DNA from: Patescibacteria group bacterium
GTDB taxonomy: Bacteria > Patescibacteriota > Microgenomatia > 2-02-FULL-39-11
DNA: 64,000 nucleotides
Direction: 5' to 3'
Assembly (NCBI GenBank): GCA_023379265.1
Contig: JAMCUI010000010.1
Location: 200-64,199 of the forward strand
Made by a program: the position numbers and the translations under genes. Of this stretch, positions 8,226 to 30,678 are shown piece by piece (position 1 is the stretch's first letter; each line of letters starts with the position of its first letter). Below the pieces are notes generated by a model that was not told the origin of the DNA, ran no database searches, and saw only the letters and a list, made by a program, of their open reading frames with translations.

Positions 8226-8269
8226 GTAGAGAAAGCCACAGGTGAAGACTATATAGTGCAATAATTTCA

Positions 8270-8298
8270 TTGACATCCTGAAGATATATTCGTATATT
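8270..8298 (+). promoter_or_regulatory. Sigma-70-like promoter (TTGACA-17 bp-TATATT) upstream of the PGT-ligase fusion gene
   Basis: TTGACA at 8270-8275, a 17-nt spacer, and TATATT at 8293-8298. The ATG lies at 8313. Confidence 0.45.
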
Positions 8299-8312
8299 GT
8301 CGTTTATCGGCT

Positions 8313-11081: not shown

Positions 11082-11087
11082 TTTTAT

Positions 11088-12194: not shown

Positions 12195-12306
12195 ATAAAT
12201 AATTGAATCTTTTCCTAAGTAGGTATTAGAACTTATATCAACATTATTATTTTGAATCAAAACCATCACAGACTGTCAAGCTAAATTTGAGGTTTTGATA
12301 CTAGTT

Positions 12307-15753: not shown

Positions 15754-15761
15754 GGGTATGT

Positions 15762-16883
15762 TTAGTGGATGTTTGGCAACAATGTTTTAAGATATTTTGA
15801 TATTGCTTTTTCGGAATAATATTTCTTTACATCATTTTGGGCATTTTTGCCAATTTTTGTGCGTAAATTTGGATTTCTCAGTAGTAGTTTGACCCGGTGT
15901 GCATACCCGGAAATAGTGTTTTCAATAAAAGCAGTTTTGCCGTTTAAGAGGTAGTCGTTTGAACCGGGACACCTTTTTACCACGGCGCATAATCCGGCGG
16001 CCATGGCTTCCATTAACACGACAGGCATTCCCTCATAGTCTGAGCTCATAGCAAAGATTTTTACGTTCCTAAAAAAAGGAGAGAGATTTTGCACTCCGTT
16101 TTTTATTTGGACATTTGTTTCCAAATGGTTGTTTTTTATAAATTGTAATACCTCTTCTTTTTGTTTGCCGTCTCCTATGAAACAGGTTTTAATATCAGGG
16201 ATGTCTGCTTTTACGTTTTTAATCACGTTAAGCAAAAAGAGAAGGTTTTTTTGCTTATCGAATCTTCCTGCGTACAGAAAATCAAGTTCCGGTTTAGCAC
16301 CCAGTTTGCCTATACGCATCAGGGTCCAGTTCGGAATGACTACTATTTTATTTTTCGGGACGGAAAAGTTATTCACTAAATCGTCTTTTGATGCGTGAGT
16401 AGGTGAAATAATGACATCTGCGATGGGATAAAAAAAGGGAATAAGGTACCATTTTATTTTTGAGTCTACATAAGGCGAGGTCAGTATATCTTCATTTAGG
16501 ACGATACGAGTTTTTTGCCAAAAGAGAACTTTTGCCGCAATAATTGACAGGAAGGAGGTATAATCCAGAAAAGTTAAGAGAGTAGTTGGTTTTAGACTGA
16601 AGATCTTCCAGATCATATAGAGAGTGAAGGGAATATGGAGTTTTCCGTTGAAAAATTGGGGTCTGTAATATATTTTTGAGTTCGAGTTATCTAATTGATT
16701 GTCCATTCTGAACCTGGTTTTGTCCCTAAGCAGTATATGGAAACGGCAATTCTTATACCGGCCATTTTTACAATAGTGGGACATATCGACAATTTTTTTC
16801 TGTATGCCTCCGATCCCAAAATTCCAGAAAACTATTAACACATTAGTGATTTTTGTTGCGTCATTCATAAAAAACCATTCCAC
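15762..16883 (-). CDS. Glycosyltransferase family 4
   Basis: SSDYEGMPVVLMEAMAAGLCAVV motif. 373 aa. Confidence 0.75.
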   Translation of the reverse strand: MEWFFMNDATKITNVLIVFWNFGIGGIQKKIVDMSHYCKNGRYKNCRFHILLRDKTRFRMDNQLDNSNSKIYYRPQFFNGKLHIPFTLYMIWKIFSLKPTTLLTFLDYTSFLSIIAAKVLFWQKTRIVLNEDILTSPYVDSKIKWYLIPFFYPIADVIISPTHASKDDLVNNFSVPKNKIVVIPNWTLMRIGKLGAKPELDFLYAGRFDKQKNLLFLLNVIKNVKADIPDIKTCFIGDGKQKEEVLQFIKNNHLETNVQIKNGVQNLSPFFRNVKIFAMSSDYEGMPVVLMEAMAAGLCAVVKRCPGSNDYLLNGKTAFIENTISGYAHRVKLLLRNPNLRTKIGKNAQNDVKKYYSEKAISKYLKTLLPNIH

Positions 16884-16947
16884 AATAAGCGGAATAATTG
16901 TTAGAATTATATAATGTTTTCACTAAAAAGAAATTAAAGGAACTGTT

Positions 16948-18111
16948 ATGAGCAATAATAGTAATTTTCTTTTTATATTGCCATTTTATAACAGGGAAAA
17001 CTGGACTGCAGATTACCAAAAGCAGACAGTAAATAAACTCTCTAAGAGATATTCTGTCGTGGTTTATTGTGAATACAATAAGACCTATGTGAAAGAATTA
17101 ATCAGTTTAAGAAAAAAGCCAATCAGGCTTTTATACAAGTCTAAAGGGGTATATTATTACTCACAGGTAGACTTGTTACCCTTTATACGTTTTGAGACGG
17201 TAAAGAGAATAAATGCTTTTATAAACGCTCTTTTATTATTTCTGTTGATCCGCAAAAATCTGTTCTCAAAGAAAATAGTGGTCTGGGGTTTTCATCCTGA
17301 AGTGGCTGATTTTCGTAAATATTTCCCATTTCGCAATTATTCCATATATGATTGTGTGGATTTCTTCAGTTCTGTTATTCCCGAACATAGCCGAATAATC
17401 AAACGACAAGAGAAGTATATCATGAACAAGTTTGACCTGGTGACCGTGAATTCAACAATACTTCTTTCCCATCATAAAAAGGTAAGAGAGAATATCAAGC
17501 TTGTTCCCTTGGGATTTTCTCCTCCTTCAAAAAAAATTACGGCTAAACGCAGCCTTCCGGGAGACAGGCCAATTATAGGCTACGCGGGAGCTCTAAATTA
17601 CAGATTGGATTATAAGTTATTAAGAAAGTTAGTTGAGGGAAATAAACAATGGATGTTCGTTTTTTGGGGTCCGCGACAGAAAGATATCCAAGATAGCATG
17701 TTTGATGTGGATAAAGAAATAGAGTATTTATTTTCCCTGCCAAACGTGATTCACGGCCAATCAACTACAAGAGATAATGTTTATTCAATGATTAAACAAT
17801 TTGATATTTGTATAATTCCGTATAATACAAAGTTAGACTTTAATAAGTATTGTTTCCCTATGAAATTATTTGAATATTTTTATGTGGGTAAACCAGTTAT
17901 GTCAACTTCTATTAAGGAACTCGGCCGTTATCCAAAATTTATTAAAATAGGTGATAGCGTAAAGGAATGGGAAGATGGTATAAAGATGTTACTAGGGCGG
18001 TCATGGCCGGCGGATAGTAAAATGGAAGAAAGGCTGATTGCAGAGGAAAACAGATGGGAGAAAAAAATAAACGAAATTATAGAATTAATCAATAATGGAA
18101 AAAAATTTTAA
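16948..18111 (+). CDS. Glycosyltransferase (GT-B, GT4-like)
   Basis: 387 aa. The C-terminal GT-B nucleotide-sugar binding region is present (IGYAGALNYRLDY...FDICIIPY). Confidence 0.6.
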   Translation: MSNNSNFLFILPFYNRENWTADYQKQTVNKLSKRYSVVVYCEYNKTYVKELISLRKKPIRLLYKSKGVYYYSQVDLLPFIRFETVKRINAFINALLLFLLIRKNLFSKKIVVWGFHPEVADFRKYFPFRNYSIYDCVDFFSSVIPEHSRIIKRQEKYIMNKFDLVTVNSTILLSHHKKVRENIKLVPLGFSPPSKKITAKRSLPGDRPIIGYAGALNYRLDYKLLRKLVEGNKQWMFVFWGPRQKDIQDSMFDVDKEIEYLFSLPNVIHGQSTTRDNVYSMIKQFDICIIPYNTKLDFNKYCFPMKLFEYFYVGKPVMSTSIKELGRYPKFIKIGDSVKEWEDGIKMLLGRSWPADSKMEERLIAEENRWEKKINEIIELINNGKKF

Positions 18112-18229
18112 AACTTTGGATGAATTTTTATAGTAAATAGATTTCCGTAGTCAATAAGTTCTTTTTTTACCCCTTTTAAACCAAAATTATAATTGATATA
18201 AAAATACATAGAATTAACGAATTAATAAA

Positions 18230-19015
18230 ATGAAGATGAGAGATAAAGTAACAAGATATTTTGATTTTCTTTTAGTGATGACTATTAAAGAAATAAAAGC
18301 AAGATACAAGAGTGCTGTTTTGGGATTTCTCTGGATGTTTCTTAATCCATTGCTTCAAATGATTATTATAGGTCTAATTTTTTCGAATTTTATTAAAGTT
18401 CCTATTAATAATTACTTTCTTTTTTTATTTCCAGGTCTTTTAGCTTGGAATTTTTTTTCTTATTCAATTACAAAAGCAACTCCATCAATTGTTTATGAAA
18501 GAACTTTGATTCAGAAGTCTAATTTTCCTCGCGAAGCGATTCCATTATCTATAGTACTATCAAATTTTTTTCATTTTTTAATTTCTATCTGCTTGTTTAT
18601 TTTTTTTCTAATAATAATAGGAAATTTTAAGAATGGTAATATTTTGAGCTCAAGTATCTATTTGTTTTTTTCGATATTTTGGCTTCTAATTTTCACATGT
18701 GGAGTATCATTATTGTCCTCGTCTCTTAACGTGAGGTTTCGCGATGTAAATTTTTTTATTCAAGCCTTGGTTTTACTCTGGTTTTATGCTACTCCTGTTA
18801 TTTTTTCTCTAAGGGTACTCCCTAGCAATTATTTGTGGATTTTTCAATTTAACCCCTTAACGTATATTTTCGAAATCATACACAATAGTTTAATTAATAC
18901 CCCTTTTCCTCAAAAAGATATCCTCTTAAGTAATTTAGTTCTTTCAATTATTATTGTTATTTTGGGATTTATTGTATTTATGAAAAATAGTCAAAATTTT
19001 TCTGATTGGTTATAA
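18230..19015 (+). CDS. wzm: ABC-2 type polysaccharide/O-antigen export permease (Wzm/TagG-like)
   Basis: 261 aa with 6 TM helices. The N-terminus is typical of ABC-2 permeases (IKARYKSAVLGFLWMFLNPL). Confidence 0.8.
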   Translation: MKMRDKVTRYFDFLLVMTIKEIKARYKSAVLGFLWMFLNPLLQMIIIGLIFSNFIKVPINNYFLFLFPGLLAWNFFSYSITKATPSIVYERTLIQKSNFPREAIPLSIVLSNFFHFLISICLFIFFLIIIGNFKNGNILSSSIYLFFSIFWLLIFTCGVSLLSSSLNVRFRDVNFFIQALVLLWFYATPVIFSLRVLPSNYLWIFQFNPLTYIFEIIHNSLINTPFPQKDILLSNLVLSIIIVILGFIVFMKNSQNFSDWL

Positions 19016-19059
19016 TAATCATTTTTAAATTTCTAAATTCCATTTTAATAGCATAAAAA

Positions 19060-19827
19060 ATGAAAATAGATTCAGGTATTAATAATATAGTTATTAAATT
19101 AGATCAAGTTTCGAAAGAATATATTCTACATCATCAAAAACCTACTTTAGTGGAAAATATTTTTAAATTGGGTCATAGTGAATCAATTTTGGCACTGAAA
19201 AATATTAATCTTGAAATTAAGAGAGGTGAAAAAATAGGAATAATCGGTGATAACGGTTCAGGAAAAACTACACTTCTTAAAATAATCTCCGGAATTACTA
19301 CTCCAACAAAAGGCCGAGTTGTTGTGAAAGGGAGAATTGCAACATTGGTAGATTTGGAAGCAGGTTTTCACCCTGATTTAACCGGTGAAGAAAATATTTT
19401 CATAAACGGGATGTTACTTGGAATGAGTAAAAAAGAAATTAATAATCAATTTTATAAGATTATTGAATATTCAGGTTTGAGTAAATTTATAGACGCACCT
19501 TTTTATACTTATTCAAGTGGTATGAGATTACGTTTGGGTTTTGCTATTGCTATTCATTCAAATCCAGATATTCTTTTACTTGATGAAGTTTTAGCAGTTG
19601 GAGATGGAGAATTTCAAGAGAAGACTTATACAACTATTCAAAATTTAATAAATGAAAAAAAGACAATTATATACATCTCACACATTTTACCGGTTATAAC
19701 TAAACTTTGTCAAAAAGTTATTTGGATAAATAAAGGCACAATTCAAGATATTGGCAGAAGCGACAAAATGGTTAAGAACTATCAAGTTGGATTGAATATA
19801 CTGACAAAAAGTATTTTGATCGGATAA
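19060..19827 (+). CDS. wzt: ABC transporter ATP-binding protein for polysaccharide export (Wzt/TagH-like)
   Basis: Walker A GDNGSGKTT, signature YSSGMRLRLGFA, Walker B LLLDEVLAVGD. Confidence 0.85.
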   Translation: MKIDSGINNIVIKLDQVSKEYILHHQKPTLVENIFKLGHSESILALKNINLEIKRGEKIGIIGDNGSGKTTLLKIISGITTPTKGRVVVKGRIATLVDLEAGFHPDLTGEENIFINGMLLGMSKKEINNQFYKIIEYSGLSKFIDAPFYTYSSGMRLRLGFAIAIHSNPDILLLDEVLAVGDGEFQEKTYTTIQNLINEKKTIIYISHILPVITKLCQKVIWINKGTIQDIGRSDKMVKNYQVGLNILTKSILIG

Positions 19828-20092
19828 AAAAGCAAGATAATCTTGAAATTCGTAATTAATTTCCCGGAAAAATCAACTAAAGATATATTAAAAAAAATTT
19901 TGGCTTGACCTCCTTAAATTATTGAATTTATGCAATAAATTTATTTTTTTAGGTTTAATGGTATAAATATGTTGGTATAAACGATGGTTTATTTCCTTGT
20001 AATCCACTAATACCTCTGTTAAATTCTCATCATATGAAAACATTAGCCAAAAACATGCGATTCTGCCTATCCTGTAGTGGAAAAATGATTAA

Positions 20093-20686
20093 GTGGGGGA
20101 AAACCTCAGCAGGCATTCCCAGATACTATTGTTCCCACGTCGTAAATCTTCCTCCTCAACCAAAGAGTATTGTTTAATGCTCTATAGGCACCCGCATAGG
20201 AGACTTCTTATCCGCGCTTCTTTTATTGCCAGAGAGAGTGGATCGGTAATTGTCAAAGAATTGAAAATCCTCAAGAAGAAATACCGGTTTACCGGTGTGG
20301 TTTCAGATGGAGGAATAGGTATCGGTAATGCAATCTTGGATGAATTTGGCAATATTCCTCCCCAGATTTGCCTGGTTCACCTTCACAGGGATGTGGTCAA
20401 CGCTATAGGTAGATTCCCCAAGGATGAGAAAGTCAAGCAACTTAAAAAGATAGCAGACTACGTCTGACTGATTGAATCTAAAGAAGCTCTAAACTGGTGG
20501 AAAGGTAAACTGAGGACTGGATTGACCGAAACTGGGATTTCTTAAGGGAAACCAAACATCAGAAAAACGGTGGTTGGTATTATGTCCACAAGGGGTCAGA
20601 AAAGCTGTTAGAATTCTTACTTCCATTCCTGATACAAGCTTTAATCCTTCGCAGAAATCTCCGGGCTTTAGCCAGGGGAGCTTCAC
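20093..20686 (+). pseudogene. Remnant of an IS256/Mutator-family transposase (C-terminal half only, frameshifted/stopped)
   Basis: VSDGGIGIGNAILDEFGNIPPQICLVHLHRDVVN resembles the IS256 D..G...QRCxVHxxRN motif. After a stop/frameshift, a downstream frame continues EALNWWKGKL, like the IS256 C-terminus. The N-terminal catalytic half is missing. Confidence 0.45.
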
Positions 20687-21654
20687 TTCATGCCGATTGA
20701 ATTTTTAATTATCTGTCTTAATTTATTGTTAGGGATAAATATTTTTGTGATCTTTCTTAAGCGGTGTAATCTTGATGTATTAAGATAGTTTGTTTTATCC
20801 TGTATTCCTGCGTTTTTAAATGATTTTTGACGTATATAACATATTAAGCAGCGTCCACAATGTTGATCAGATTTCGCCCGACAGCTACTGCGAGTTTTTT
20901 CAAGAGGAATATTATGTTTTGTTGCCCATTTAATAAAATAATCCTTATCGTAAAAAAATCCAATCTCTTTTTCTAAAGGTAAAGAGGTAATTTGCCAGTT
21001 CATGTCATGCGTGACTAAGCATACTCCTAACATTATTCCTCTCATTGTTGTTAAAGTCATATCTAGTTTTCCCTCTCCATCACTTTTCATATAAGCAGTA
21101 AAAATAGTTCTGATTTTAAAATTTTTGATAATTTGTAAAAAATAGGCACATTGGGCTCCAAAAGTAACCAGTAAATTGCTATAAAAATAATCCCCCCAAA
21201 GTTGATTGGAATTCTTATTGATGGGTTTATTTTCTACTTTTTCATAGGCCCAACGAATTTCAGTCGGGGGAAAAGATGTATTAATTTTAATTAGGTCATG
21301 AAATTGGCCTGGATAACGATTCTGGAAAAACTTAGTAAAATAATCTGCTGCTTTTTCTTCCGCATGCTGGTAAGGGTGACCGCGACGAGTAAAAACGGGA
21401 TAAATTTCTAATTTATATATTTCCATTAAAATGGCGGCAACGATGGATGTATCCAACCCTCCAGAGAAAAGTAAAATAACTTGTTCACCTTGATTTGGCA
21501 TTTTAAAAATATACCCACGTTCTTTTCTGAAAAAATCCTCCACATATGAAATTAGTTTCATATTTTCCAGCTTTCTTGATTTTAAGATAGTAATAATTAA
21601 TTTTTTATTTAATCTGGGTAAATCATTCATTGTTTTCAAATATTTAATTAACAA
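20683..21654 (-). CDS. PP-loop ATP-pyrophosphatase superfamily protein (QueC/WbpG-like N-acetyl-sugar amidotransferase-like)
   Basis: ILLFSGGLDTSIVAAI is a PP-loop SGGxDS motif. The C-terminus carries a Cys cluster (CRAKSDQHCGRCLICY). 323 aa. Confidence 0.55.
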   Translation of the reverse strand: MLIKYLKTMNDLPRLNKKLIITILKSRKLENMKLISYVEDFFRKERGYIFKMPNQGEQVILLFSGGLDTSIVAAILMEIYKLEIYPVFTRRGHPYQHAEEKAADYFTKFFQNRYPGQFHDLIKINTSFPPTEIRWAYEKVENKPINKNSNQLWGDYFYSNLLVTFGAQCAYFLQIIKNFKIRTIFTAYMKSDGEGKLDMTLTTMRGIMLGVCLVTHDMNWQITSLPLEKEIGFFYDKDYFIKWATKHNIPLEKTRSSCRAKSDQHCGRCLICYIRQKSFKNAGIQDKTNYLNTSRLHRLRKITKIFIPNNKLRQIIKNSIGMK

Positions 21655-23101
21655 CAGTTTTTAAAAAATTCAATACACCTTGGTCAAAGTGAAATATTTT
21701 TTGGCAGAATACATAAAAATTATTACTTGGTGGCTTCGATAATAAATATAATAATAGTCGTCGATGAATACCCTTTATTCCAGAACCCTTGTTCCTGCTC
21801 AATTCTACAAGTTGCATAAAGTTTCGATAATAATATAATATGTCTTTCCTCGGAAACTCCGGAATATTTAGAATCGTGTCAAATCTCTCTCTGAAGTTTT
21901 TCCTTTGTTTTCCAATAATTTTTCTTTTCTTGCAAATCTGCCATAGTTTTGTTTTTGGATAAGGATAAAAAATATTTAGAAAATGTTGGTTTGGATTAAT
22001 ATGGGCAAACAATTTTACCGTTTGTAAAAAAATTTCTGGTGTTTCGTCAGGAAATCCCATCATGATGAATGCTAATGTTTGGAGATTAAATTTCTTAGCT
22101 AATCTAAAGGCATTTATAATTGATTCATTGCTCATTCTACGGTCTAAGAGATGTTTTCTTAGATATTCATCACCGCATTCAACTCCTATAAATACTGCTC
22201 GACAGCCAGCATTTTTAAGTTTTGACATTATTATTCCGTCAACCGTGTCTGCCCTAATATTGCAAATAAAAGGTAAATTTATTTTCTGATAGTATTCTAG
22301 AAAGGTGTTCAACCATATTCTGTTTAGAGTAAAAGTATCATCATGGAAAAGAAGGAAATCAGCGCCATATTTTTTCACGGCTAACTCAATCTCTTTTATA
22401 GCCCTTTTAGGGCTCTTAAATCTTACATAAAGAGAATTATTGAAATTATTGTAAAATTTTTTTAAAGCATGATTGGAACAATAAGTACAATTAAAAGGAC
22501 ATCCACGAGAAAGAATAAACTCTAGCCCTTTTTCCTCATTGAGTCCATATGGAAGACTGTTTAACCATAAATGGCCGTTTCTCACGAATAAATCTCTATC
22601 CGGAAACGGTAAACTGTCTAAGTTTTTGATTATTTCTCTATTTGAATTCTTAATAATTTTTCTACCTTTTCTTAGCCAAAGACCTTTTATGGAATAATAA
22701 TTTTTCCCCTTTTGTAGTTTATCCGCCAATTCAGCTAATGCATATTCTCCCTCGCCTAAACAAATTGCATCTAGAGAGTAAGCGTGAGAGAATTCTTCAG
22801 GAGCTAACGTTGTATGTACTCCGCCGCAAATAGTAAAAATATGAGGGAATTTTTTTTTAATTAACCGGGAGATTTTTTTTATTTCATGAAAAATTGCAGT
22901 TACTGCTGAAAATGCAATGATATCAGGATGAAACTTAAGAATTTCCGTTTCTATCTGTGAGTAACTCTCAGTATTAAAATAATAGATTAAACAGGTTTGA
23001 TGACCTCTCTTTTTTAATACGGCTGATATAGATGCTATACCCTCTAAATATGACAACGAACCTTGCCCTCTAATGAAACCATGTATAAAAAGTACCTTCA
23101 T
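21644..23101 (-). CDS. B12-binding-domain radical SAM enzyme (class B-like)
   Basis: N-terminal Rossmann-like B12-binding region, then the CPFNCTYCSNH radical-SAM CxxxCxxC motif. 485 aa. Confidence 0.8.
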   Translation of the reverse strand: MKVLFIHGFIRGQGSLSYLEGIASISAVLKKRGHQTCLIYYFNTESYSQIETEILKFHPDIIAFSAVTAIFHEIKKISRLIKKKFPHIFTICGGVHTTLAPEEFSHAYSLDAICLGEGEYALAELADKLQKGKNYYSIKGLWLRKGRKIIKNSNREIIKNLDSLPFPDRDLFVRNGHLWLNSLPYGLNEEKGLEFILSRGCPFNCTYCSNHALKKFYNNFNNSLYVRFKSPKRAIKEIELAVKKYGADFLLFHDDTFTLNRIWLNTFLEYYQKINLPFICNIRADTVDGIIMSKLKNAGCRAVFIGVECGDEYLRKHLLDRRMSNESIINAFRLAKKFNLQTLAFIMMGFPDETPEIFLQTVKLFAHINPNQHFLNIFYPYPKTKLWQICKKRKIIGKQRKNFRERFDTILNIPEFPRKDILYYYRNFMQLVELSRNKGSGIKGIHRRLLLYLLSKPPSNNFYVFCQKIFHFDQGVLNFLKTVVN

Positions 23102-23111
23102 AAATTTTAAG

Positions 23112-24353
23112 TTAATGATTAAGAAAATGAATTTTTGCTCGAAGAATATTTTTCTTTCCAGAGTTAAATAATATATTTTCTGATTTAAAATTTAATCCGT
23201 AGACTTCAGATAACCATTTGAATTTATAAGATTTGTTTTCAACGACGATTGCGCAGGTCAAACTATTATCATTAGTTATTATTTGCAGGTTTTGGTTATT
23301 TTTAATCTTATTAATAAATTGATATTTATATTTCAAATTTTCGTATATTTTTCTTTTAAATCCATTTTTCCCCCATAGATTGATAATTGCCCAACATGCG
23401 ACTGGTGCAATACCACTTCTACTACCTAAGAGTGTGTTATCTTTTTCTTCCAAATAGGTAATAGGTTTTTCTATTAACTGTCTCAGCTCTTTTCTGTATA
23501 GAATTATTCCTGCAGGTAGTGGGGTAAAACCGAATTTATGAAAGTCCGTTAAAAAAGTTTGTATTTCACAAAAAGAAAATGGCTTAAATTCATTATTTAA
23601 AAAAGGTTCTATAAGTCCATTAAGTGCAGCATCAAACCAGATAAAAAATTCAACCCTGTGTTTCTTTTTTATTTTTTCTATCGACCGGCTGATTTTTTTA
23701 ATTGGATCATTTGTTCCTGTAACTGTATAACCCAGAGTAAGAGGGACCAGAAAACCCTTTTTGCCTTTTTTTATTGAGTTTTCTACTTCTTTCTCAAAAC
23801 CCCAAGCGTCCATATTCCAGGTTTTATCATTAAGCGGCACAATAAAAGTTGGTACACCAACAATATCGGCTGCTTTCTCAATTGAATAATGGGTTAGACT
23901 TGTTTTTATAAGACATATTTTGTCTCTTTCTATTCCTCTCTTTTCTATATATTTAATTCCTAGCCAAGCTGAAAAAATGTTAGCTTCCGTTCCACCAGTT
24001 GTAACGTAACCCTCAAGTTCATTTTTATTCCCATGGTAGAGATCAATCATCTGTAAAATTAAGTCTCTTTCGACTTTGGCAGTTTCGTGATTGGGCTCCA
24101 AATTTTTTATTGACCAATTGCCTAAATTGTTGGGATTATATGGCAGTAGCATTTTCCAGGCGTTAGCAGCTACTTTCTCAGGATAAGTTACGAGATGACC
24201 ATATCCTGTGTACTTTTTCTGGTTTTTCACTTTATTTAATATACCCCATAGTCCAGCTTTAATCTTAATTTTTGATACTGGTCTGTCTGGAAATTTATTA
24301 TTCCTTTTTGGATATAGAATATTATTTTTAATATAGGTTTTAATAGCGAACAT
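23112..24353 (-). CDS. Group II pyridoxal-phosphate-dependent decarboxylase-like protein
   Basis: TTGGTEANIFSAW matches the group II decarboxylase motif (cf. MfnA TSGGTEANL). DFHKFGF carries the PLP lysine. 413 aa. Confidence 0.6.
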   Translation of the reverse strand: MFAIKTYIKNNILYPKRNNKFPDRPVSKIKIKAGLWGILNKVKNQKKYTGYGHLVTYPEKVAANAWKMLLPYNPNNLGNWSIKNLEPNHETAKVERDLILQMIDLYHGNKNELEGYVTTGGTEANIFSAWLGIKYIEKRGIERDKICLIKTSLTHYSIEKAADIVGVPTFIVPLNDKTWNMDAWGFEKEVENSIKKGKKGFLVPLTLGYTVTGTNDPIKKISRSIEKIKKKHRVEFFIWFDAALNGLIEPFLNNEFKPFSFCEIQTFLTDFHKFGFTPLPAGIILYRKELRQLIEKPITYLEEKDNTLLGSRSGIAPVACWAIINLWGKNGFKRKIYENLKYKYQFINKIKNNQNLQIITNDNSLTCAIVVENKSYKFKWLSEVYGLNFKSENILFNSGKKNILRAKIHFLNH

Positions 24354-24358
24354 AAAAT

Positions 24359-25090
24359 TTACTTTTGAATTATACCCAATCCTGAATCTTTAGGAAAAGG
24401 GAAAATAAAAGTGTGTTTATACTCAATTTCTCTCCAAAATCTCCAAATGCCGAAAAGCCCTTTATCCAGATACCCGCGAGCTACAACGTCATGGAAAGCC
24501 ATAAACCCACCTTTATCCAGTCTTGGCCAGAATAAACTGTAATCCCTTTTTACCCCCTCATATGAATGGTCTCCGTCTATATATATGTATTGGTATTTAT
24601 GTTTATATCTTTTAGCAAATTCTGATGTTGTCATTACGTGTGTGGTTAAATTTTTTTTTACGTCAAGAAAAGAAAAATGCTTATTCGGGTTCACTTCTTT
24701 CCACCAGCCGATACCGCTCCAATTGTTTGGGTCATCCGGTCCAAATCCCGCGTCGACAAAATCAACATCACCAAAACCGTTTTCCTGGCAGGCTAAAGCG
24801 CAAATGGCTGGAATAAAACCTTTTCTTGATCCCACACAAAGTACTCTTTTGGGTTTTAAGTTTAATATTAATGAGTAGTGAATAAATCCATAGCCTAAGT
24901 TGCCAGTGGTAAGATTTGTCTGGTGTCCCTTGTCACCGTTATAATATTTGGCTAGTTGTCTGGTGACAGATCGGTTAAATATGATGGACCTGTTTTGACC
25001 GAAGAGGTTTTTGCTAACAGAGTTTGTGGAAAGAAAGAATCCTACTTTGTCTCTAAGGTGCGAATTAATATTTAGACCGAAGAGTTTCAT
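24359..25090 (-). CDS. Class I SAM-dependent (sugar) O-methyltransferase, TylF/MycF-like
   Basis: LCVGSRKGF (glycine-rich SAM site), DFVDAGF and YIYIDGDHSYEGV, typical of the TylF/Methyltransf_24 family. 243 aa. Confidence 0.55.
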   Translation of the reverse strand: MKLFGLNINSHLRDKVGFFLSTNSVSKNLFGQNRSIIFNRSVTRQLAKYYNGDKGHQTNLTTGNLGYGFIHYSLILNLKPKRVLCVGSRKGFIPAICALACQENGFGDVDFVDAGFGPDDPNNWSGIGWWKEVNPNKHFSFLDVKKNLTTHVMTTSEFAKRYKHKYQYIYIDGDHSYEGVKRDYSLFWPRLDKGGFMAFHDVVARGYLDKGLFGIWRFWREIEYKHTFIFPFPKDSGLGIIQK

Positions 25091-25097
25091 AATTTCT

Positions 25098-26084
25098 TTA
25101 GCGGAAAAGTTTAACCCAAATTTTCATGGCAGTTCTAAGGTCCTTAAAATAATCATCTTTCGGAAATTTTACTTTTTCTACCAACTCTTCATAACAATCT
25201 ACTAAAGCGGTAGATTTAAGTATCAGATGTGCCAATTGAGAGTTGAGAAATTCATTTGTTTCTATACCTTTGGCCTCTTTTTTTAAGTTCTGGAAAACAT
25301 CTGAAGCTTTTTTGTGATCAACAAATGGAGAACCATTTACTACGGCCATTCCCAAGTGGTCGATGATTTTTTTGGCAAACATCCCGGCCCAGATATCGTC
25401 AAACCTGTCGTATCCCCAATGGTTTCCTAGAGGGTCGTATCCCATAAGCGGAAAGTACATAAGGGGAGTAATTTTTGACTTGAAAGCCAAATTCATCGAA
25501 CACATAGGGAAAAGATAGCCTTTAGGAACAAATTCGATAAAAGGGAAACTGTCAGGTATAGAGAGATCTTGATGCAATAATTGCGTTGGAGCGTCAAAAT
25601 CAAGGATATTTTTCCATAGGCCATGGCTTACGACGACTTCCCTTTTACCTCTTATGGCATAGGGGATACCACGAGTATAGTAATATTGTCTGTGCGGATA
25701 GGTGGGATGCCAGCCGTCGGGTGCAGAAAGTGAAAGGTTTTCCACATGCTCATTTATGAAATTTTGTCCGGTGACAGGGTAACAATCGTCGTCAAGAGTG
25801 ATGACAATATCCGCTTTTAACTGAAAAGCTTTCAGAAATCCAAATGAGCGTATACCGGCGTTTTTCCGGGATATTATCCATGAGTTTTTACCCAATTCAT
25901 TGTCTATATCCTGCCAAGTGTAGTGATAGACTTTCTGAAAATATTTTTTAGGTGTGTTTATCTCTTTTGACTTATGGTCTTCGATGATAAAACCTGCACA
26001 ATTGTAAAAGTGGTTTTTCCAATATTTGAGGAAATCCAGGTTTCTGATTGTGGGAATGACAATGGCTATTTTTTTCTGTCGCAT
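25098..26084 (-). CDS. GT75 / reversibly-glycosylated-polypeptide (UDP-arabinopyranose mutase)-like protein
   Basis: The N-terminal [22 protein letters not shown] closely matches the plant RGP signature [20 protein letters not shown]. Followed by [12 protein letters not shown]. 328 aa. Confidence 0.5.
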   Translation of the reverse strand: [328 protein letters not shown]

Positions 26085-26199
26085 AAAATCGCTTCATTAT
26101 AATCAATAAAAATATCAAATACAATTATGGTTGAACGGATGAATATTTATATTCAAATTCTATCTTGACAAGAGTGGTAGGTATGTTATTCTGGATTTA

Positions 26200-26916
26200 A
26201 TGGTAGGGAATCAAAATAAACATTTGGGTGTTGCTCTGGGCTTTTTTGTGGTCATGGGTGTACTATTGGGTATAGCTGTAATCGGCGCTGAAACATACAA
26301 TAATTACCGTTCCAAAGCTTACGCCCCTCCTCCCAATCCCATACCCAATTGTACCAGTCTCACAGGTCCTTCTTCAGTTACCGTAGGTCAAAGCGCCACG
26401 TATACCGCAAGCTTTTCTTCGGAACAGGGGAATCTTGGCGGGGAAATTGATGCTGGACAAGGCGGGGCGTTTAAGTGGACACCTGGGAATAAACCAATTT
26501 CCGGAACTTCCGGATCTTTGTCGTTTACCTGGACTCCTACTGTAGTCGGAACATACGATGTGTTCTGTCGTTCATGGAATGATGCAGTTGCCGAATGCCG
26601 TGGCAAAGCAAATTACGTGGATGGGCCACCAAGATACGCTTGTGCAGGACCAACTAGCTCAATGTCTGTCACTGTTGTGGCGGCAGTGACGCCGACGGTA
26701 ACTCAGGCAGCCTGTAACAATAAGACTAAAGGTGATGCCAATTGTGACGGAACAACCGATCTTATCGATTACTCCATCTGGCTTAACCACCAGTGTAACA
26801 AGCAAGCCGCAGGTACAGCTTGTACTGATCTGCGGGCAGATTTTAATGGAGACGGCAGCGTAGATGATGCAGATTTACAAGTGTGGAAAAATAATTACTT
26901 AAGCGATACGCATTGA
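26200..26916 (+). CDS. Secreted Cys-rich protein with a C-terminal double dockerin-like module
   Basis: Signal anchor present, 8 Cys. The C-terminal GDANCDGTTDLIDYSIWLNH and ADFNGDGSVDDADLQVWKNNY form two DxNxDGxxD segments. Confidence 0.55.
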   Translation: MVGNQNKHLGVALGFFVVMGVLLGIAVIGAETYNNYRSKAYAPPPNPIPNCTSLTGPSSVTVGQSATYTASFSSEQGNLGGEIDAGQGGAFKWTPGNKPISGTSGSLSFTWTPTVVGTYDVFCRSWNDAVAECRGKANYVDGPPRYACAGPTSSMSVTVVAAVTPTVTQAACNNKTKGDANCDGTTDLIDYSIWLNHQCNKQAAGTACTDLRADFNGDGSVDDADLQVWKNNYLSDTH

Positions 26917-26928
26917 TACTCGTGAATA

Positions 26929-27975
26929 ATGAGTCCAAAAATACAACTAACCAAAAACCAGACGTTTTCTCTTGTTTTTCTGGCGGTACTTTTCTTTTCC
27001 TTATTTGTAGGACTTATACTGGTACAACAAAGGCAAGAGATTAGGCCAAAGGCCAGTTCCACATCTGTAGTGCTATCCCTTTTACCGGCCACACAGAATT
27101 TTAATCTAAACGATACCAATACTTTTGACCTGGTTGCGACTTTTACGGGAGGTTCGTCTACGGAAAAAATTGACGGTATTCAAACCGAAGTGGATTTTTC
27201 TTCCCAATATTTAAACATACCGGCAAATCACTATATTATAACAGCTCAATCTGGTCTTTCCGTTCTTAGAGTTGATGGACCTACTATCAGTAATCAAAAT
27301 AATAAAGCCCTCATACGGTTGGTTGCAACAACCCCCGGCAGCGGACCTTCAACAGATAAACCAATCGTTGTCGCGAAGATTGATTTTCAAGGTATTGCGG
27401 CTACCCCAAGACCGCAAATCATATCCCTTGGTACCTCCCAAATAGTAAACAACCTGTCTGTGGCAATACCAGTCACATTGGTAGGCGCAGGATATACGGT
27501 CGGGCAAGGCAATATTACAATAACTCCACCGGGGCCAACCATTCGTCCGGTTATACCAGGTCAGGCTGATTTTCTTTTACAGACAGATTCAAACAGCACC
27601 TCTGTAGGTCAGACTTTTACGGTAAATGTCTCGATGAAACTTACAGATTCAAGCGCAAGAGCATCCGGAGTGGATTTTATACTGCTTTATGATAAGAAAA
27701 TTCTAGATGTGGTAAATACTGTTCCGAATATTACTACAGTTAACTCTCAGGCGCCTTTCACAGATGGCCAAGTTGCATCGGGAGGTTCATTCAACGACCA
27801 ATATAATTTTGTTAGAGTAACTCTATTGTCCAAAAAGCAAACAACAGATCTTCCGTCAGGTACAATCAATCTGGCAAAAGTGACATTTAAGGGCAGCAGT
27901 GTAGGCACCGCTACCATAAAATTCCCTGATGATAATAGTCTGCTACAGGTGTCGGGAATTGCGGTAAGTAATTGA
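26929..27975 (+). CDS. Membrane-anchored protein with two cohesin-like beta-sandwich domains
   Basis: N-terminal TM. Domain 1 contains FDLVATFTGGSSTEKIDGIQTEVDF...ASTPGSGPSTDKPIVVAKIDF. Domain 2 contains VGQTFTVNVSMKLTDSSARASGVDFILLYDKKILDV. It is paralogous to the next three genes. Confidence 0.5.
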   Translation: MSPKIQLTKNQTFSLVFLAVLFFSLFVGLILVQQRQEIRPKASSTSVVLSLLPATQNFNLNDTNTFDLVATFTGGSSTEKIDGIQTEVDFSSQYLNIPANHYIITAQSGLSVLRVDGPTISNQNNKALIRLVATTPGSGPSTDKPIVVAKIDFQGIAATPRPQIISLGTSQIVNNLSVAIPVTLVGAGYTVGQGNITITPPGPTIRPVIPGQADFLLQTDSNSTSVGQTFTVNVSMKLTDSSARASGVDFILLYDKKILDVVNTVPNITTVNSQAPFTDGQVASGGSFNDQYNFVRVTLLSKKQTTDLPSGTINLAKVTFKGSSVGTATIKFPDDNSLLQVSGIAVSN

Positions 27976-28063
27976 GAATTAAAGTTCAAAGTTTGCGGAA
28001 TATAAAATAAATTTAGCGAGGATAAAAAATCCGACAAATAAAAATTATACTGGTTCAGTCAAG

Positions 28064-30010
28064 ATGAGAAATATTTCGGGAGGAAAAGGTAAATCTATAT
28101 TTATACTTTTGCTGCTTCTGGTGGCGCTTTTCGTCGCCGTGGTTTTGGTGCGGCAAAATCAGGAATTAAGGAATAGGGCTGCGGGACTTAGCGTGACTTT
28201 AAGCTTGAATCCGTCTACAGATAATTTGAGTACGAGCAAACCAAAAGAATTTGATATAATCGCTACTTTCCAGAACGGGTCTTCAGGTGAAAAGTTGGAT
28301 GGAATAAGAACAGTCTTAAACTTTCCGGCGGCAAATATCTTCATTCCAGACAGCCCTCTTATAGACACATCGACTTCTGGCCTAAGTCCTTATAAGGTTG
28401 ATAGTCCTGCTGTAGCCAACCAGGCAGGGAAAATGAATATTACATTGATTGCTTCCACTCCGGGTAGCGGTCCGTCTACGGATAAACCTGTTATCATTGC
28501 CAAAGTTTTTCTTCAGGGTAAGGCTCCTATAACTTCAACTTCCGTAACATTTTCAGATACACAAATAGTAAATAACCAATCAGCACAAGTACCTGTCCAA
28601 CTAGAGAGTGCCAATTTGGGAGTGGTAATGGATAACGGAACAAGCTGTCTGACTTATCCGGTGACTGATACCTTCAGCGAATCAAGCTTGAATACGGATT
28701 TGTGGCAAGAATGGAAACAAAACGGCAGTGATTCTCTGACCTCTGGAAGTTTGCGTCTTATGGCAAACGGTGGCGGGTCTTCTGAGTCATATGGAGGTGT
28801 ATTGTCAGCAAAAACTTTGTGTGCAACGACTGGTGATTTTGACACTTCAGTTGACTTCAACCAGTTTACTACAAGCGGTCAATCGGAGGCTGATGCTATT
28901 TTATCTCTTGAGGACCAGACAAACGATTCTCATATATTTATTCAATATGCCAATAAAGGTAACAGTGCTGGTTTTGAAAGTAAACTGGTCATAAAGGGTC
29001 AGGACCAGACTGTGCAGGATAAGTGGACACCCATGTCCGTGACTACTGGAAAACTTCGGATAGTGAGGCAAGGAGGGGTCTTTACTACATATTATGATAC
29101 AGGAAGCGGTTGGATACAGCAGGCTTCATTTATACCCGATTCTTTTGCTACAGCTTTGAATGTGGGATTATTTGCTAAAAGCTGGGGAGAGTATCCTACA
29201 GTCTCCGCCAATTTCGACAACTTTTCTTTTTCCCAAGCCAATCCCGCCCCTTCGTTTACTCCCACTCCGAGCCTGACACCTGTGCCAACCTTGACTCTTA
29301 TACCGACTCCTCCTTTAGGATCCAACCAATACCTTATAAATATAGGAGATAAACAATGGCTTACGATAAATGTGGGTGCTTCGGTGACTCCTCAGATAAG
29401 GTTTAAGGCAAAAGTGGCTTTTCTCCAGAATACACCGGATTTATACTTCAAGCTGAGAGTGAAGGATGAGTTGGCCTTTATGAATAATCCAACTGATCAG
29501 GGAACAACTGATTCATGCAATAATACTCCCGCCGGGGACTACGATTTTTGGGTACCGATGCGGGCGCAAAATGGGATTTATTCTCCAGTACCTTCTATAG
29601 GGACGCCTCCCTCTGGGATGAATATAGCTACAGTTTCGCCTGATGGATGGGTAATCCTTAATAATGTTCAGGCGGGGAAGTATTACTCAATTTTCTTGAA
29701 AGCCCCCAAAACCAGAGGGACACTCATGGTGCAGCATGTACTGCTTGCACCCAACCAGGACCAAAACATACAGGATTTTGACTGGACGACAAATGCATTG
29801 GCACCGGGAGATTTGCCTGACCCCAATAACGGCGGCAAACAGGACTGTACCGTCAATAGTGTGGACCTGTCGCTTATAGAACAGAGGCAAGGAAAGACTG
29901 ACCAGGATAGTCTGAATATAGCCGATGTGAATTATGACGGGGTGGTAAACGGAAATGACATTTCAAAAGTTGTCAATACGCTTTCGACAAAACCTGATGA
30001 CGATAAGTAA
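28064..30010 (+). CDS. Membrane-anchored adaptor protein: cohesin-like domain, ConA/LamG-like lectin domain, PT-linker, beta domain and C-terminal dockerin-like module
   Basis: N-terminus paralogous to 26929 (FDIIATFQNGSSGEKLDGIRTVLNF...ASTPGSGPSTDKPVIIAKV). The middle region is LamG-like. The linker is PAPSFTPTPSLTPVPTLTLIPTPP. The C-terminus is ADVNYDGVVNGNDISKV. Confidence 0.5.
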   Translation: MRNISGGKGKSIFILLLLLVALFVAVVLVRQNQELRNRAAGLSVTLSLNPSTDNLSTSKPKEFDIIATFQNGSSGEKLDGIRTVLNFPAANIFIPDSPLIDTSTSGLSPYKVDSPAVANQAGKMNITLIASTPGSGPSTDKPVIIAKVFLQGKAPITSTSVTFSDTQIVNNQSAQVPVQLESANLGVVMDNGTSCLTYPVTDTFSESSLNTDLWQEWKQNGSDSLTSGSLRLMANGGGSSESYGGVLSAKTLCATTGDFDTSVDFNQFTTSGQSEADAILSLEDQTNDSHIFIQYANKGNSAGFESKLVIKGQDQTVQDKWTPMSVTTGKLRIVRQGGVFTTYYDTGSGWIQQASFIPDSFATALNVGLFAKSWGEYPTVSANFDNFSFSQANPAPSFTPTPSLTPVPTLTLIPTPPLGSNQYLINIGDKQWLTINVGASVTPQIRFKAKVAFLQNTPDLYFKLRVKDELAFMNNPTDQGTTDSCNNTPAGDYDFWVPMRAQNGIYSPVPSIGTPPSGMNIATVSPDGWVILNNVQAGKYYSIFLKAPKTRGTLMVQHVLLAPNQDQNIQDFDWTTNALAPGDLPDPNNGGKQDCTVNSVDLSLIEQRQGKTDQDSLNIADVNYDGVVNGNDISKVVNTLSTKPDDDK

Positions 30011-30070
30011 ATTAATGCAGCGAAAAGTTCTTAGAGTTCGTAAAGTTATTAAAGTTAATTTAGTCTATAT

Positions 30071-30676
30071 ATGAACCAACAGGGATCTTCTGATTACAGG
30101 AAAATTTTAGTGGTTGTCTTGGTGCTTGTGATTCTTTTGGGTGCCATAGTTGTCATAAGGGCCCAGAGGAATGCGGCTTTACAAAAAAGCATGGAAGTCC
30201 AAAAAGTTGCACCAACTATTATCTTATCTCCAACAAGTTTGCCTTTGGTAGGAGAGTATTCCTTCTCGGGAGTACCTGTCAGCGTAAAAGTAGGACAGAC
30301 TTTTAACGTAAGCATCGATTTTAAGGCGCCAAAAACGGTATTGGATGGGGCTGATGCTTATGTAAGATTTAATCCGACCTATTTGAAAGCAGATAGCGTC
30401 ACTGAAGGTCCTTATTTTTCCGAGTATCTGAGGAAAACCATAGATAACGAGGAGGGTATGGTAAAAGTGACTGGTTTTAGGTCAAAAACGGGTGATACTC
30501 TTGATAAAAACGTCACTTTCTTTACCCTCTCCCTGACAGCCCAAAAAAGCGGATTGACAAATCTGACTTTTGATTTCCAGAAGGGAAGGACCAACCTTTC
30601 AACATTGGTAGAAAAGGGAACAAGTAGAAACGTATTGGGTACAACTGGTAAAGCAGTCATTACAATAGCTCAATAA
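30071..30676 (+). CDS. Membrane-anchored single cohesin-like domain protein
   Basis: N-terminal TM, then VKVGQTFNVSIDFKAPKTVLDGADAYVRFNPTYLKADSV...VTFFTLSLTAQKSGLTNLTFDF. 201 aa. Confidence 0.5.
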   Translation: MNQQGSSDYRKILVVVLVLVILLGAIVVIRAQRNAALQKSMEVQKVAPTIILSPTSLPLVGEYSFSGVPVSVKVGQTFNVSIDFKAPKTVLDGADAYVRFNPTYLKADSVTEGPYFSEYLRKTIDNEEGMVKVTGFRSKTGDTLDKNVTFFTLSLTAQKSGLTNLTFDFQKGRTNLSTLVEKGTSRNVLGTTGKAVITIAQ

Positions 30677-30678
30677 TT

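Follow-up and report, generated by a model that had tools for sequence, protein, structure and literature searches.

A five-gene operon predicted to decorate an exported surface glycan in a Patescibacteria bacterium

A compact cassette of five minus-strand genes occupies positions 20683-26084 of a 64,000-nucleotide (nt) stretch of a Patescibacteria group bacterium genome (NCBI GenBank assembly GCA_023379265.1, contig JAMCUI010000010.1, positions 200 to 64,199 of the forward strand); this whole stretch is called the window below. We read the five genes as one operon that decorates an exported surface glycan with amine and methyl groups, a reading that we hold with belief and doubt in about equal measure. 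It draws on observations of operon structure, catalytic motifs, embedding in a glycan locus, allelic exchange and recurrent gene association, from which we infer all the individual pathway steps. Patescibacteria are episymbionts whose surface mediates host attachment and phage recognition, and the chemistry of that surface is almost undescribed; a literature search on Patescibacteria surface glycosylation found nothing specific. An earlier note on this DNA, made from the letters alone, had proposed a glycan-modification cassette. Its general idea stands on the synteny described below, while three of its specifics, the WbpG class, the TylF membership and the terminal cap, fell away.

The operon and the pathway proposed for it

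The open reading frame (ORF) list places exactly five genes in this interval, given here in order of transcription (aa, amino acids; SAM, S-adenosylmethionine; PLP, pyridoxal 5'-phosphate):

25098-26084, minus strand: GT75/RGP-family protein, 328 aa, first gene of the operon (PF03214, 4.4e-56)
24359-25090, minus strand: Methyltransf_24 class I SAM methyltransferase, 243 aa (PF13578, 2.5e-15)
23112-24353, minus strand: group-II PLP decarboxylase, 413 aa (PF00282, 3.3e-17; 62.7 bits against a cutoff of 27)
21644-23101, minus strand: cobalamin-binding (class B) radical SAM enzyme, 485 aa (PF02310, 2.1e-18, and PF04055, 1.6e-20; CPFNCTYC)
20683-21654, minus strand: QueC-fold PP-loop ATPase, 323-aa ORF with a TTG start (SGGLDTS PP-loop, four-Cys C-terminus)

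Adjoining ORFs are spaced by 5-10 nt; at the last junction, between the radical SAM and QueC-like genes, they overlap by 11 nt or, if the QueC-like protein starts at the ATG of the NCBI model, lie 13 nt apart. Because the genes share a strand and their gaps measure only 5-13 nt, we treat them as one operon, and catalytic motifs are intact in all five products. The earlier description of five co-directional, closely packed minus-strand genes is thus confirmed, with identical ORF coordinates. A scan of 18000-26400 for promoters and terminators gave no enrichment: promoter-like sites numbered 29 where 35.6 were expected, and terminator-like sites 5 where 4.3 were expected. The arrangement is no assembly artefact, since independent Logan contigs from SRR10278331 reproduce window positions 18644-24539 and 24510-26250 at 100% identity. 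The break between them, where the contigs overlap by 30 nt, falls precisely on the strain-variable junction described below, as is expected when an assembly graph branches at a polymorphic site.

In the proposed pathway, the GT75/RGP protein would convert a nucleoside diphosphate (NDP)-pyranose, for example UDP-L-arabinopyranose or GDP-6-deoxyhexose, into an NDP-furanose donor. The decarboxylase, which resembles serine and histidine decarboxylases, would turn an amino acid into a primary amine, its substrate perhaps being phosphorylated or a diamino acid. The QueC-fold enzyme would adenylate a carboxylate on the sugar or on the chain under construction, be it that of a uronic acid, an ulosonic acid or some other acidic substituent, and join the amine to it as an amide. 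The Methyltransf_24 protein would add an O-methyl group, and the radical SAM enzyme would methylate, rearrange or otherwise modify an unactivated carbon. Wzm and Wzt, encoded next to the cassette, would export the finished polymer and a Wzy_C-type transferase would attach it. With exporter, decarboxylase, radical SAM enzyme and ligase forming one exchangeable allele, the resulting surface chemistry would be strain-specific.

The last gene of the operon encodes a member of an uncharacterised QueC/Cap9-fold clade with about 250 representatives (at E<=1e-30 among 1.84 billion proteins; 16 word-indexed homologues), found almost only in bacteria of the candidate phyla radiation (CPR) and in a few metagenome-assembled genomes labelled otherwise. 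Its real start is probably the ATG at ~21630, which gives 315 aa, because the NCBI model of the identical protein (P0121) has that length. The protein carries an N-terminal helical extension of ~55 residues, and its family keeps the PP-loop SGGLDT[ST] and four invariant cysteines (C258, C266, C269 and C272), spaced C(x)7CxxCxxC as against C(x)8CxxCxxC in canonical QueC. The Pfam QueC profile (PF06508, 7.3e-09) matches the C-terminal zinc motif region only. An AlphaFold2 model reaches a predicted local distance difference test (pLDDT) score of 90, and its top Foldseek matches are QueC (2pg3/3bl5) and Cap9 (9nto_B), with target-normalised template modelling scores of 0.71-0.75; a profile search of the PDB ranks Cap9 9nto_B first (7.5e-9) and QatC second.

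Two assignments to characterised families were tried and rejected. Canonical QueC fails on its profile (TIGR00364, 17.8 bits against a cutoff of 150.3), on missing pathway partners and on its substrate motifs YxQxHxxE, VPxRN and YPDC (PMC13329287), none of which is conserved: in the family and Cap9 alignments inspected, the YGQ position reads R-R-G-Q/H and there are no conserved RN or PDC columns. Since the TIGR00364 cutoff is not reached, the name '7-cyano-7-deazaguanine synthase' that NCBI gives to this clade is probably an over-annotation. The WbpG class fails as well, with no TIGR03573 match at E<=0.01 and a cysteine motif of QueC type and order rather than the CxxC(x)6CxC of WbpG (PMC13329287). 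In place of the WbpG/QueC amidotransferase class of the earlier note, we assign the protein to a separate QueC/Cap9-fold clade. A 2026 survey of the QueC family (PMC13329287) mentions neither Patescibacteria nor a decarboxylase nor polysaccharide, and does not describe this clade. QueC-fold enzymes form amides from an adenylated carboxylate (bioRxiv 10.1101/2025.04.06.647259; PMC13279940; PMC13329287); QueC uses ammonia, and Cap9 and QatC use protein N-termini (bioRxiv 10.1101/2025.04.06.647259), so the fold can join an adenylated carboxylate to amines beyond ammonia (PMC13279940). By analogy, the window protein is predicted to be an ATP-dependent carboxylate-amine ligase, which is more likely than an amidotransferase.

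Cap9, the best PDB profile match, and weak QatC/QueC matches in NCBIfam and PADLOC (4.8e-12 and 2.4e-10) also bring up anti-phage defence of the QatABCD or type IV CBASS-related kind, in which the QueC-like protein would conjugate a deazaguanine to a partner protein. These matches are confined to the zinc motif region, and the QatC score, 45.5 bits, falls far short of its cutoff of 280. The window holds no QatA, QatB, QatD, CD-NTase or Cap10/TGT partner, PADLOC recognises none of the other four proteins, a marginal radical SAM match (0.0024) aside, and the neighbours are biosynthetic enzymes. The absent partner genes and the sub-threshold, partial matches effectively refute a Qat/CBASS system, and we consider defence scarcely credible here.

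The radical SAM enzyme combines an N-terminal B12-binding domain (PF02310, 66.7 bits) with a CxxxCxxC core (PF04055, 74.4 bits), just as the earlier note had read it. In NCBIfam, no characterised equivalog (BchE, HpnJ, ApyD, PhpK, HpnR and others) reaches its cutoff, the best being BchE with 149.8 against 481 bits; PDB matches include TokK (6e-13) and AprD4 (9e-13), and the nearest homologue is 51% identical. Its orthologues lie in glycan loci in all six contexts examined, namely the window and the following five (labels in L denote the loci compared; GT, glycosyltransferase):

L022: Bac_transf, RGP, epimerase, GT2/GT4, Wzm/Wzt
L023: co-operonic with Wzm/Wzt, with a stop/start overlap with Wzt; then GTs, GLF and Wzy_C
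L024: WecG, radical SAM, methyltransferase, decarboxylase, PqqD, QueC-like
L105: three B12-radical SAM genes with DegT, Wzm/Wzt, RGP and Bac_transf
L106: a Woesearchaeota (DPANN) locus with an S-layer protein, GT4 and a Wzx-like gene

The enzyme is predicted to be a C-methyltransferase or another radical modifier of the glycan. The earlier note held such enzymes to be rare in O-antigen-type loci, which agrees with our literature search, where no characterised cobalamin-radical SAM enzyme in polysaccharide clusters was found, and does not extend to the CPR and Woesearchaeota loci examined here.

The first gene encodes a full-length PF03214 protein (residues 2-327, 190.9 bits against a cutoff of 23.8) whose PDB sequence matches are UDP-arabinopyranose mutase 8cid (6.5e-26) and MtdL 7xpr/7yua (5e-13). 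Aligned to MtdL (7yua/7xpr), it keeps the DXD motif D98-D99-D100, the Arg in YTRGIPY, the Ser in CSMN, the Arg and Asp in YDRFDD and the His in VDHKK, with Q229 replaced by Met. The residues with assigned roles in MtdL are the catalytic, glycosylated R159 (R158 in OsUAM1), S228, R257, D260 and the Mn-binding H287 (PMC9937993). Because all catalytic residues of NDP-pyranose/furanose mutases are kept, the protein is most likely a Mn2+-dependent mutase of this kind that supplies a furanose donor, a prediction from sequence. The family named in the earlier note was right, and within it the protein is more likely a mutase than a transferase. Homologues are widespread in Microgenomates (913 matches at E<=1e-5), carry the names Patescibacteria, Roizmanbacteria, Gottesmanbacteria and Woesebacteria, and, among the 120 matches listed, share 54-71% identity beyond a near-identical strain. 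Three Roizmanbacteria contigs (L005, at 7187-14304, L006 and L007) hold an intact RGP/GT75 gene and several short RGP fragments. The fragments alternate with a Fic/MerR gene and two ATPase genes of the AAA_14/DUF4143 kind, and look like the pieces of a second RGP copy split up by insertions.

The methyltransferase belongs to PF13578, which all 24 members of its family match; TylF matches only one of the 24 (0.0075) and Methyltransf_3 three, and these weak matches indicate the same broad class and not the TylF family. The window protein itself matches PF13578 and not PF05711, so the TylF/MycF-type enzyme of the earlier note is not supported. Invariant residues of the family are D172-x-D174-H175 and H200-D201, a DxDH...HD pattern that we take to resemble the metal site of cation-dependent O-methyltransferases, and the protein is probably a metal-dependent O-methyltransferase, as predicted from these residues. 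PDB sequence and profile searches gave no usable match, and a single-sequence AlphaFold model reached a pLDDT of 35.

The group-II PLP decarboxylase, also recognised as such in the earlier note, is established by PF00282 and by the motifs TGGTEAN, FDAAL (DAA) and DFHKFG, the last with the PLP lysine in xHK. No NCBIfam equivalog with a defined substrate (histidine, tyrosine/MfnA or glutamate) reaches its cutoff; the scores are 165 bits against 305 for histidine decarboxylase (1.7e-48) and 138 against 299 for MfnA (4e-40). The PDB matches are histidine decarboxylase 7eru (4e-26), plant serine decarboxylase 8jij (6e-22) and MfnA (2e-18).

The glycan locus and its strain-variable allele

The cassette forms the end of a low-GC (guanine plus cytosine) glycan locus that comprises a fusion of PHPT (polyisoprenyl-phosphate hexose-1-phosphate transferase) with Wzy_C, four GT4 genes, DUF4330, Wzy_C and Wzm/Wzt; the assembly genes likewise flank the cassette in two relatives (L002 and L017). 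The features concerned are:

8313-18111: glycan assembly genes by Pfam (Bac_transf-Wzy_C fusion, four GT4, DUF4330, Wzy_C), GC 0.33-0.37
8313-11081: the Bac_transf-Wzy_C fusion by Pfam, 922 aa
18068-24486: allelic segment (Wzm, Wzt, transposase remnant, QueC-like, radical SAM, decarboxylase, 3' end of the methyltransferase)
18230-19015, plus strand: Wzm, ABC-2 permease, 261 aa (PF01061, 9.8e-17)
19060-19827, plus strand: Wzt, ATPase, 255 aa (PF00005, 3.1e-25)
about 20093-20680, plus strand: decayed Mutator-family transposase remnant (PF00872, 2.5e-4 on a 124-aa fragment; frame broken)
51258-53543: third Wzy_C protein by Pfam, 761 aa, with a C-terminal TPR repeat

The earlier note placed the cassette after the Wzm/Wzt genes, and it does adjoin them; Wzm and Wzt (GC 0.27-0.29) nevertheless lie on the plus strand, convergent with the operon, and the transposase remnant, with a GC of 0.44 against 0.27-0.32 in the adjoining genes, stands between. 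Among window ORFs of at least 120 aa, Pfam finds no Wzx-type flippase, so that Wzm/Wzt is the sole exporter detected for the locus. Pfam also finds no nucleotide-sugar dehydrogenase or epimerase among the other ORFs of the window. On the other side, the locus stops abruptly at cohesin/dockerin proteins with a GC of 0.42-0.48.

The host is a Patescibacteria member, Microgenomates-like, and Patescibacteria are monoderm. 'O-antigen' is therefore the wrong frame. A Gram-negative O-antigen locus is a poorer likeness than the ABC-dependent clusters by which monoderm bacteria make S-layer or protein O-glycans. The terminal cap that the earlier note proposed is not supported either, because Wzt is a bare ATPase: ABC_tran is its sole Pfam domain, with no extra C-terminal cap- or carbohydrate-binding domain, and the window holds no terminator-type enzyme. 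Among relatives, L011 (6181-9234) encodes a 1017-aa protein with several SAM-methyltransferase domains and an ABC_tran ATPase beside an ABC-2 permease, which may be a fused terminator-exporter. L024 has a 913-aa protein with a methyltransferase domain among the Pfam entries listed for it (12226-14967), beside a separate 252-aa ABC_tran gene (14943-15701), near QueC-like and PqqD genes. These large methyltransferase(-ABC) proteins (913-1017 aa), found in relatives and not in the window, hint at methyl-terminated chains elsewhere.

Did the exporter and the decoration genes arrive separately or together? When the contigs L002, L003 and L004, all taken from other samples, are compared with the window by blastn, both flanks are 97-99% identical and nothing inside 18068-24486 matches; contig L017, likewise of another sample, gives the same picture, with flanks of 97-99% identity and a different allele in between. 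The segment has the lowest GC of the window (0.27-0.32). Its counterpart, the sister allele, has the order decarboxylase, QueC-like, HD (YfbR-like) phosphohydrolase, 155-aa protein, nucleotidyltransferase-like, Wzt, Wzm; in L002 and L017, the phosphohydrolase is present and the radical SAM gene absent. Protein identities between the window and L002 are:

Decarboxylase: 42%
QueC-like: 40%
Wzt: 44%
Wzm: 33%
Methyltransferase: 89% (mosaic)
GT75 mutase: 99%

The mutase gene lies outside the swapped segment, as its 99% identity implies. The methyltransferase is a mosaic whose last ~40 residues diverge from the L002 allele, which places a recombination breakpoint at ~24486, inside its gene. Comparison of the two alleles thus indicates that exporter and decoration genes were exchanged together. 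This exchange between strains of 98-99% identity amounts to a switch of the serotype kind, with selection by phage or host as its probable driver, and allelic replacement between near-identical strains is new for this lineage. A second short stretch without a DNA match in L002 (26321-26713), again with flanks of 98-99% identity, lies within the 5' part of a gene for a 238-aa dockerin protein.

Such mosaicism also fits another account, in which the five genes are merely co-located, brought by horizontal transfer into a variable surface island and acting independently; for example, the mutase and methyltransferase would serve the glycan and the other three genes would act elsewhere. The breakpoint inside the methyltransferase gene, the transposase remnant at the other end, the conservation of the mutase while other genes were replaced, and the presence of the radical SAM gene in only ~13% of family loci all speak for it. 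The short gaps and common strand, however, indicate co-transcription. Methyltransferase, decarboxylase and QueC-like genes are found together again, in varied order, in Microgenomates, Saccharibacteria and further CPR lineages, and the same three genes with the radical SAM gene recur in L024 in another order and orientation. Independence of the five genes is, in our judgement, quite improbable.

Further genes around the locus deserve mention. In the 8313-11081 fusion, a PHPT initiating transferase and an O-antigen ligase/oligosaccharyltransferase-like domain unite the first and last pathway steps in one polypeptide. Within 26200-31419, beside the glycan locus, dockerin-type genes (26200-26916 and 28064-30010) and cohesin-type genes (26929-27975 and 30071-30676) on the plus strand suggest a cohesin-dockerin surface assembly in a Patescibacteria genome. 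Two large neighbour proteins of 771 and 685 aa (35211-37526 and 38083-40140) each contain HD_4 and no further recognised domain.

Gene neighbourhoods in relatives and the weighing of readings

Loci of the QueC-like family were gathered from one genome scan (8), one metagenome scan (80) and contig look-ups, which gave 70 non-redundant loci, 53 of them with at least four neighbours. Neighbour clusters were named from Pfam, and clades were taken from a neighbour-joining tree. The following neighbours were counted (rSAM, radical SAM):

ABC ATPase: 34 loci
PqqD-like protein (~90 aa): 26 loci
Methyltransf_24: 25 loci
Group-II decarboxylase: 19 loci
ABC-2 permease: 18 loci
Thymidylate-synthase-like (TS-like): 14 loci
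GT4: 12 loci
HD phosphohydrolase: 11 loci
DUF4330: 11 loci
Wzy_C: 9 loci
rSAM-SPASM: 9 loci
B12-radical SAM: 7 loci

ABC or glycan markers accompany the QueC-like gene in 35 of the 53 loci. L008 places it in one operon with GT2, GFO_IDH_MocA and a DegT sugar aminotransferase, a textbook set of amino-sugar genes. A decarboxylase is present in 23 of the 53 loci, with the methyltransferase as its immediate neighbour in 19 of these. Included here are five loci (L016, at 7681-9036, L027, L044, L046 and L052) that have a non-homologous Orn/Arg-type decarboxylase (PF02784) beside the PF13578 methyltransferase; that adjacency outlasts a non-orthologous replacement argues for a real functional coupling of decarboxylation and the methyltransferase. 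The earlier note would have counted missing synteny with glycan loci against itself; in many relatives, methyltransferase, decarboxylase and QueC-like genes stand beside ABC-2, Wzy_C, DUF4330 and GT genes.

The three clades differ in their surroundings. Clade B, which holds the window protein, has methyltransferase, decarboxylase, HD, PNP_UDP_1, cytidylyltransferase-like, ABC transporter and B12-radical SAM neighbours; of its 10 loci, 80% have an ABC ATPase, 70% have HD and 60% have a decarboxylase of one kind or another. Clade C has PqqD, methyltransferase, decarboxylase, ABC transporter, Wzy_C, DUF4330 and GTs, and sometimes YcaO or rSAM-SPASM. The distant clade A, with TS-like, dCTP-deaminase-like, Ham1, kinase, deoxyribosyltransferase and aminotransferase neighbours, probably performs nucleotide chemistry. 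The distant-clade clusters L031, L065, L067, L068, L070, L018/L033 and L020 also carry an AAA_17 kinase, a class I/II aminotransferase and a second PP-loop paralogue, and have the look of a CPR pathway leading to a modified pyrimidine nucleotide. The ~90-aa PqqD-like gene stands directly downstream of the QueC-like gene in all of its 26 loci out of 70, L036, L056, L077 and L089 being among them along with many of clade C. Hidden Markov models of the neighbour families, run over all six frames of the window, found no PqqD, HD, PNP, CTP-transferase, TS-like, YcaO-context or SPASM homologues.

The PqqD-like genes raise the possibility of peptide or protein modification, akin to that of ribosomally synthesized and post-translationally modified peptides (RiPPs). 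The ligase would then adenylate a peptide or protein carboxylate or conjugate to a peptide amine, the amine would be attached, the radical SAM enzyme and methyltransferase would tailor the product and ABC-2 would export it, with the glycan genes as mere neighbours. PqqD-like proteins are of the RiPP recognition element type, and two further RiPP hallmarks occur among the loci (YcaO in 4, rSAM-SPASM in 9). In addition, the non-canonical QueC-fold enzymes Cap9 and QatC modify proteins (bioRxiv 10.1101/2025.04.06.647259), and the radical SAM enzyme shows sub-threshold similarity to RiPP C-methyltransferases (ApyD, 6.9e-37; TIGR03975, 1.2e-26). The earlier note had named RiPP biosynthesis as an unrelated pathway that would undermine it, and relatives do show such markers in part. 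The window itself has no PqqD, YcaO or SPASM in the six-frame search, in which precursor peptides were not systematically sought, and clade B is mostly without PqqD. The tightly packed operon leaves no space for a precursor gene, and its first gene is a nucleotide-sugar mutase. Moreover, radical SAM orthologues accompany Wzm/Wzt and glycosyltransferases in loci that lack ligase, decarboxylase and PqqD, and the swapped Wzm/Wzt is the only exporter available to the glycan. On balance, a peptide or protein substrate for this operon is unlikely.

A further account invokes nucleobase or nucleotide chemistry. The substrate of the QueC-like enzyme would be the carboxylate of a nucleobase, deazapurine-like or other, or of a nucleotide, and the decarboxylase and methyltransferases would modify this small molecule further; the setting would be salvage, the making of a cofactor or the hypermodification of nucleic acids. 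The QueC fold and the NCBI annotation suggest it, as do the PNP_UDP_1, Pribosyltran, YfbR-like HD and CTP_transf_like neighbours in clade B and the TS-like, dCTP-deaminase-like, Ham1, kinase and nucleoside deoxyribosyltransferase neighbours in clade A. Against these stand the low TIGR00364 score, the absence of the canonical substrate motifs from the conserved columns, and a window without QueD, QueE, FolE, TGT or any nucleotide-type neighbour. Clade A is distant from the window protein. The phosphorylase and phosphoribosyltransferase of clade B would equally suit salvage of S-adenosylhomocysteine (SAH) or 5'-deoxyadenosine and of adenine. We regard nucleobase chemistry as very improbable for this operon.

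Decoration of an exported glycan, the reading that we prefer, has several points of its own to answer. The QueC-like family is known from sequence and predicted fold only. Pfam shows no uronic-acid-forming UDP-glucose dehydrogenase or other obvious acid-sugar pathway in the 64-kb window that would furnish the carboxylate acceptor. The PqqD-like genes that follow clade C ligases, and the YcaO or rSAM-SPASM of some loci, point to a peptide substrate there. The ligase in clade B often adjoins PNP_UDP_1, phosphoribosyltransferase, HD and cytidylyltransferase-like genes, and its substrate could be nucleotide-linked; as a speculation, these genes may instead provide the salvage just named for the SAM enzymes, plus a TagD-like activator. 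ABC-2 transporters export small molecules too, and the radical SAM enzyme would depend on a supply of B12 in a CPR host.

The kind of system is known, namely decoration genes in an ABC-dependent glycan locus and decoration by amine-amide chemistry, and what is new is the enzyme families involved: the QueC-fold clade, which is closely coupled with a decarboxylase and a PF13578 methyltransferase, the glycan-associated B12-radical SAM family and a GT75 mutase in a polysaccharide locus. More tentatively, and with more doubt than belief, we propose a larger picture in which the QueC-fold clade is a glycan-directed amide ligase that links the amine from the decarboxylase with an acidic sugar, a dedicated B12-radical SAM family C-methylates or rearranges exported polysaccharides in CPR and DPANN, and exporter and decoration are swapped as one allele, which varies the surface chemistry of strains that are otherwise identical. 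If this is true, a glycan would join ammonia and protein N-termini as the third type of acceptor used by the QueC fold; the operon would be a non-homologous counterpart of the Campylobacter jejuni amide-decoration pathway, and the polysaccharide loci of ultra-small prokaryotes would repeatedly feature B12-radical SAM chemistry.

Comparison with known systems

The locus as a whole resembles the slg clusters of Geobacillus stearothermophilus and Paenibacillus alvei and the E. coli O8/O9a clusters in its PHPT initiator (a WsaP-like Bac_transf), Wzm/Wzt, a Wzy_C-domain transferase (WsaB/WsfB-like), cytoplasmic GTs, low GC, tight packing and a locus methyltransferase (PMC2943079). The P. alvei S-layer cluster also has a PP-loop AsnB homologue (wsfA) and tagD, and the third Wzy_C protein of the window (51258-53543) resembles protein O-oligosaccharyltransferases of the PglL/WsfB type (PMC2943079). 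Unlike these clusters, the window shows no evidence of a chain-terminating cap, its Wzt having no extra domain, and the QueC-fold ligase, group-II decarboxylase, B12-radical SAM enzyme and GT75 mutase are absent from them.

The individual enzymes can be placed in a similar way. The mutase shares its full-length PF03214 domain and catalytic residues with plant UDP-arabinopyranose mutase/RGP, MtdL and Hyg20; the latter two, the only characterised bacterial GT75 mutases, belong to actinomycete antibiotic pathways (PMC9937993), whereas the window gene lies in a polysaccharide locus. The QueC-like protein has in common with QueC, Cap9 and QatC the PP-loop SGGxD[ST], the QueC/Cap9 fold and a zinc motif whose four cysteines are ordered as in QueC, and its clade differs from the QueC, QatC and WbpG families in having a decarboxylase and a methyltransferase as partners. 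The radical SAM enzyme combines a B12-binding domain with a CxxxCxxC core, as do C-methyltransferases of the GenK/TokK type, AprD4, HpnJ and BchE; unlike those, its family goes with loci for polysaccharide export, in CPR bacteria and at a single Woesearchaeota locus.

The closest functional parallel to the proposed pathway is the ABC-dependent HS:2 capsule of C. jejuni, in which the decarboxylase Cj1436, the ATP-dependent amidoligase Cj1438C and the phosphatase Cj1435 act on chain-bound glucuronic acid (PMC11800397). Both would join an amine made by a PLP decarboxylase to a chain carboxylate by ATP-dependent amidation in an ABC-dependent glycan. The trio of decarboxylase, QueC-like and HD genes in the sister allele parallels Cj1436/Cj1438C/Cj1435 with unrelated families, and the HD phosphohydrolase beside the ligase, in that allele and in 70% of the window's clade, recalls the C. 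jejuni phosphatase. The families differ at each step: a group-II decarboxylase as against the Cj1436 type, a QueC-fold PP-loop enzyme as against the C-terminal amidoligase of Cj1438, and an HD as against a HAD phosphatase. In contrast to HS:2, the window allele has no phosphatase, carries a B12-radical SAM enzyme and belongs to a CPR bacterium.

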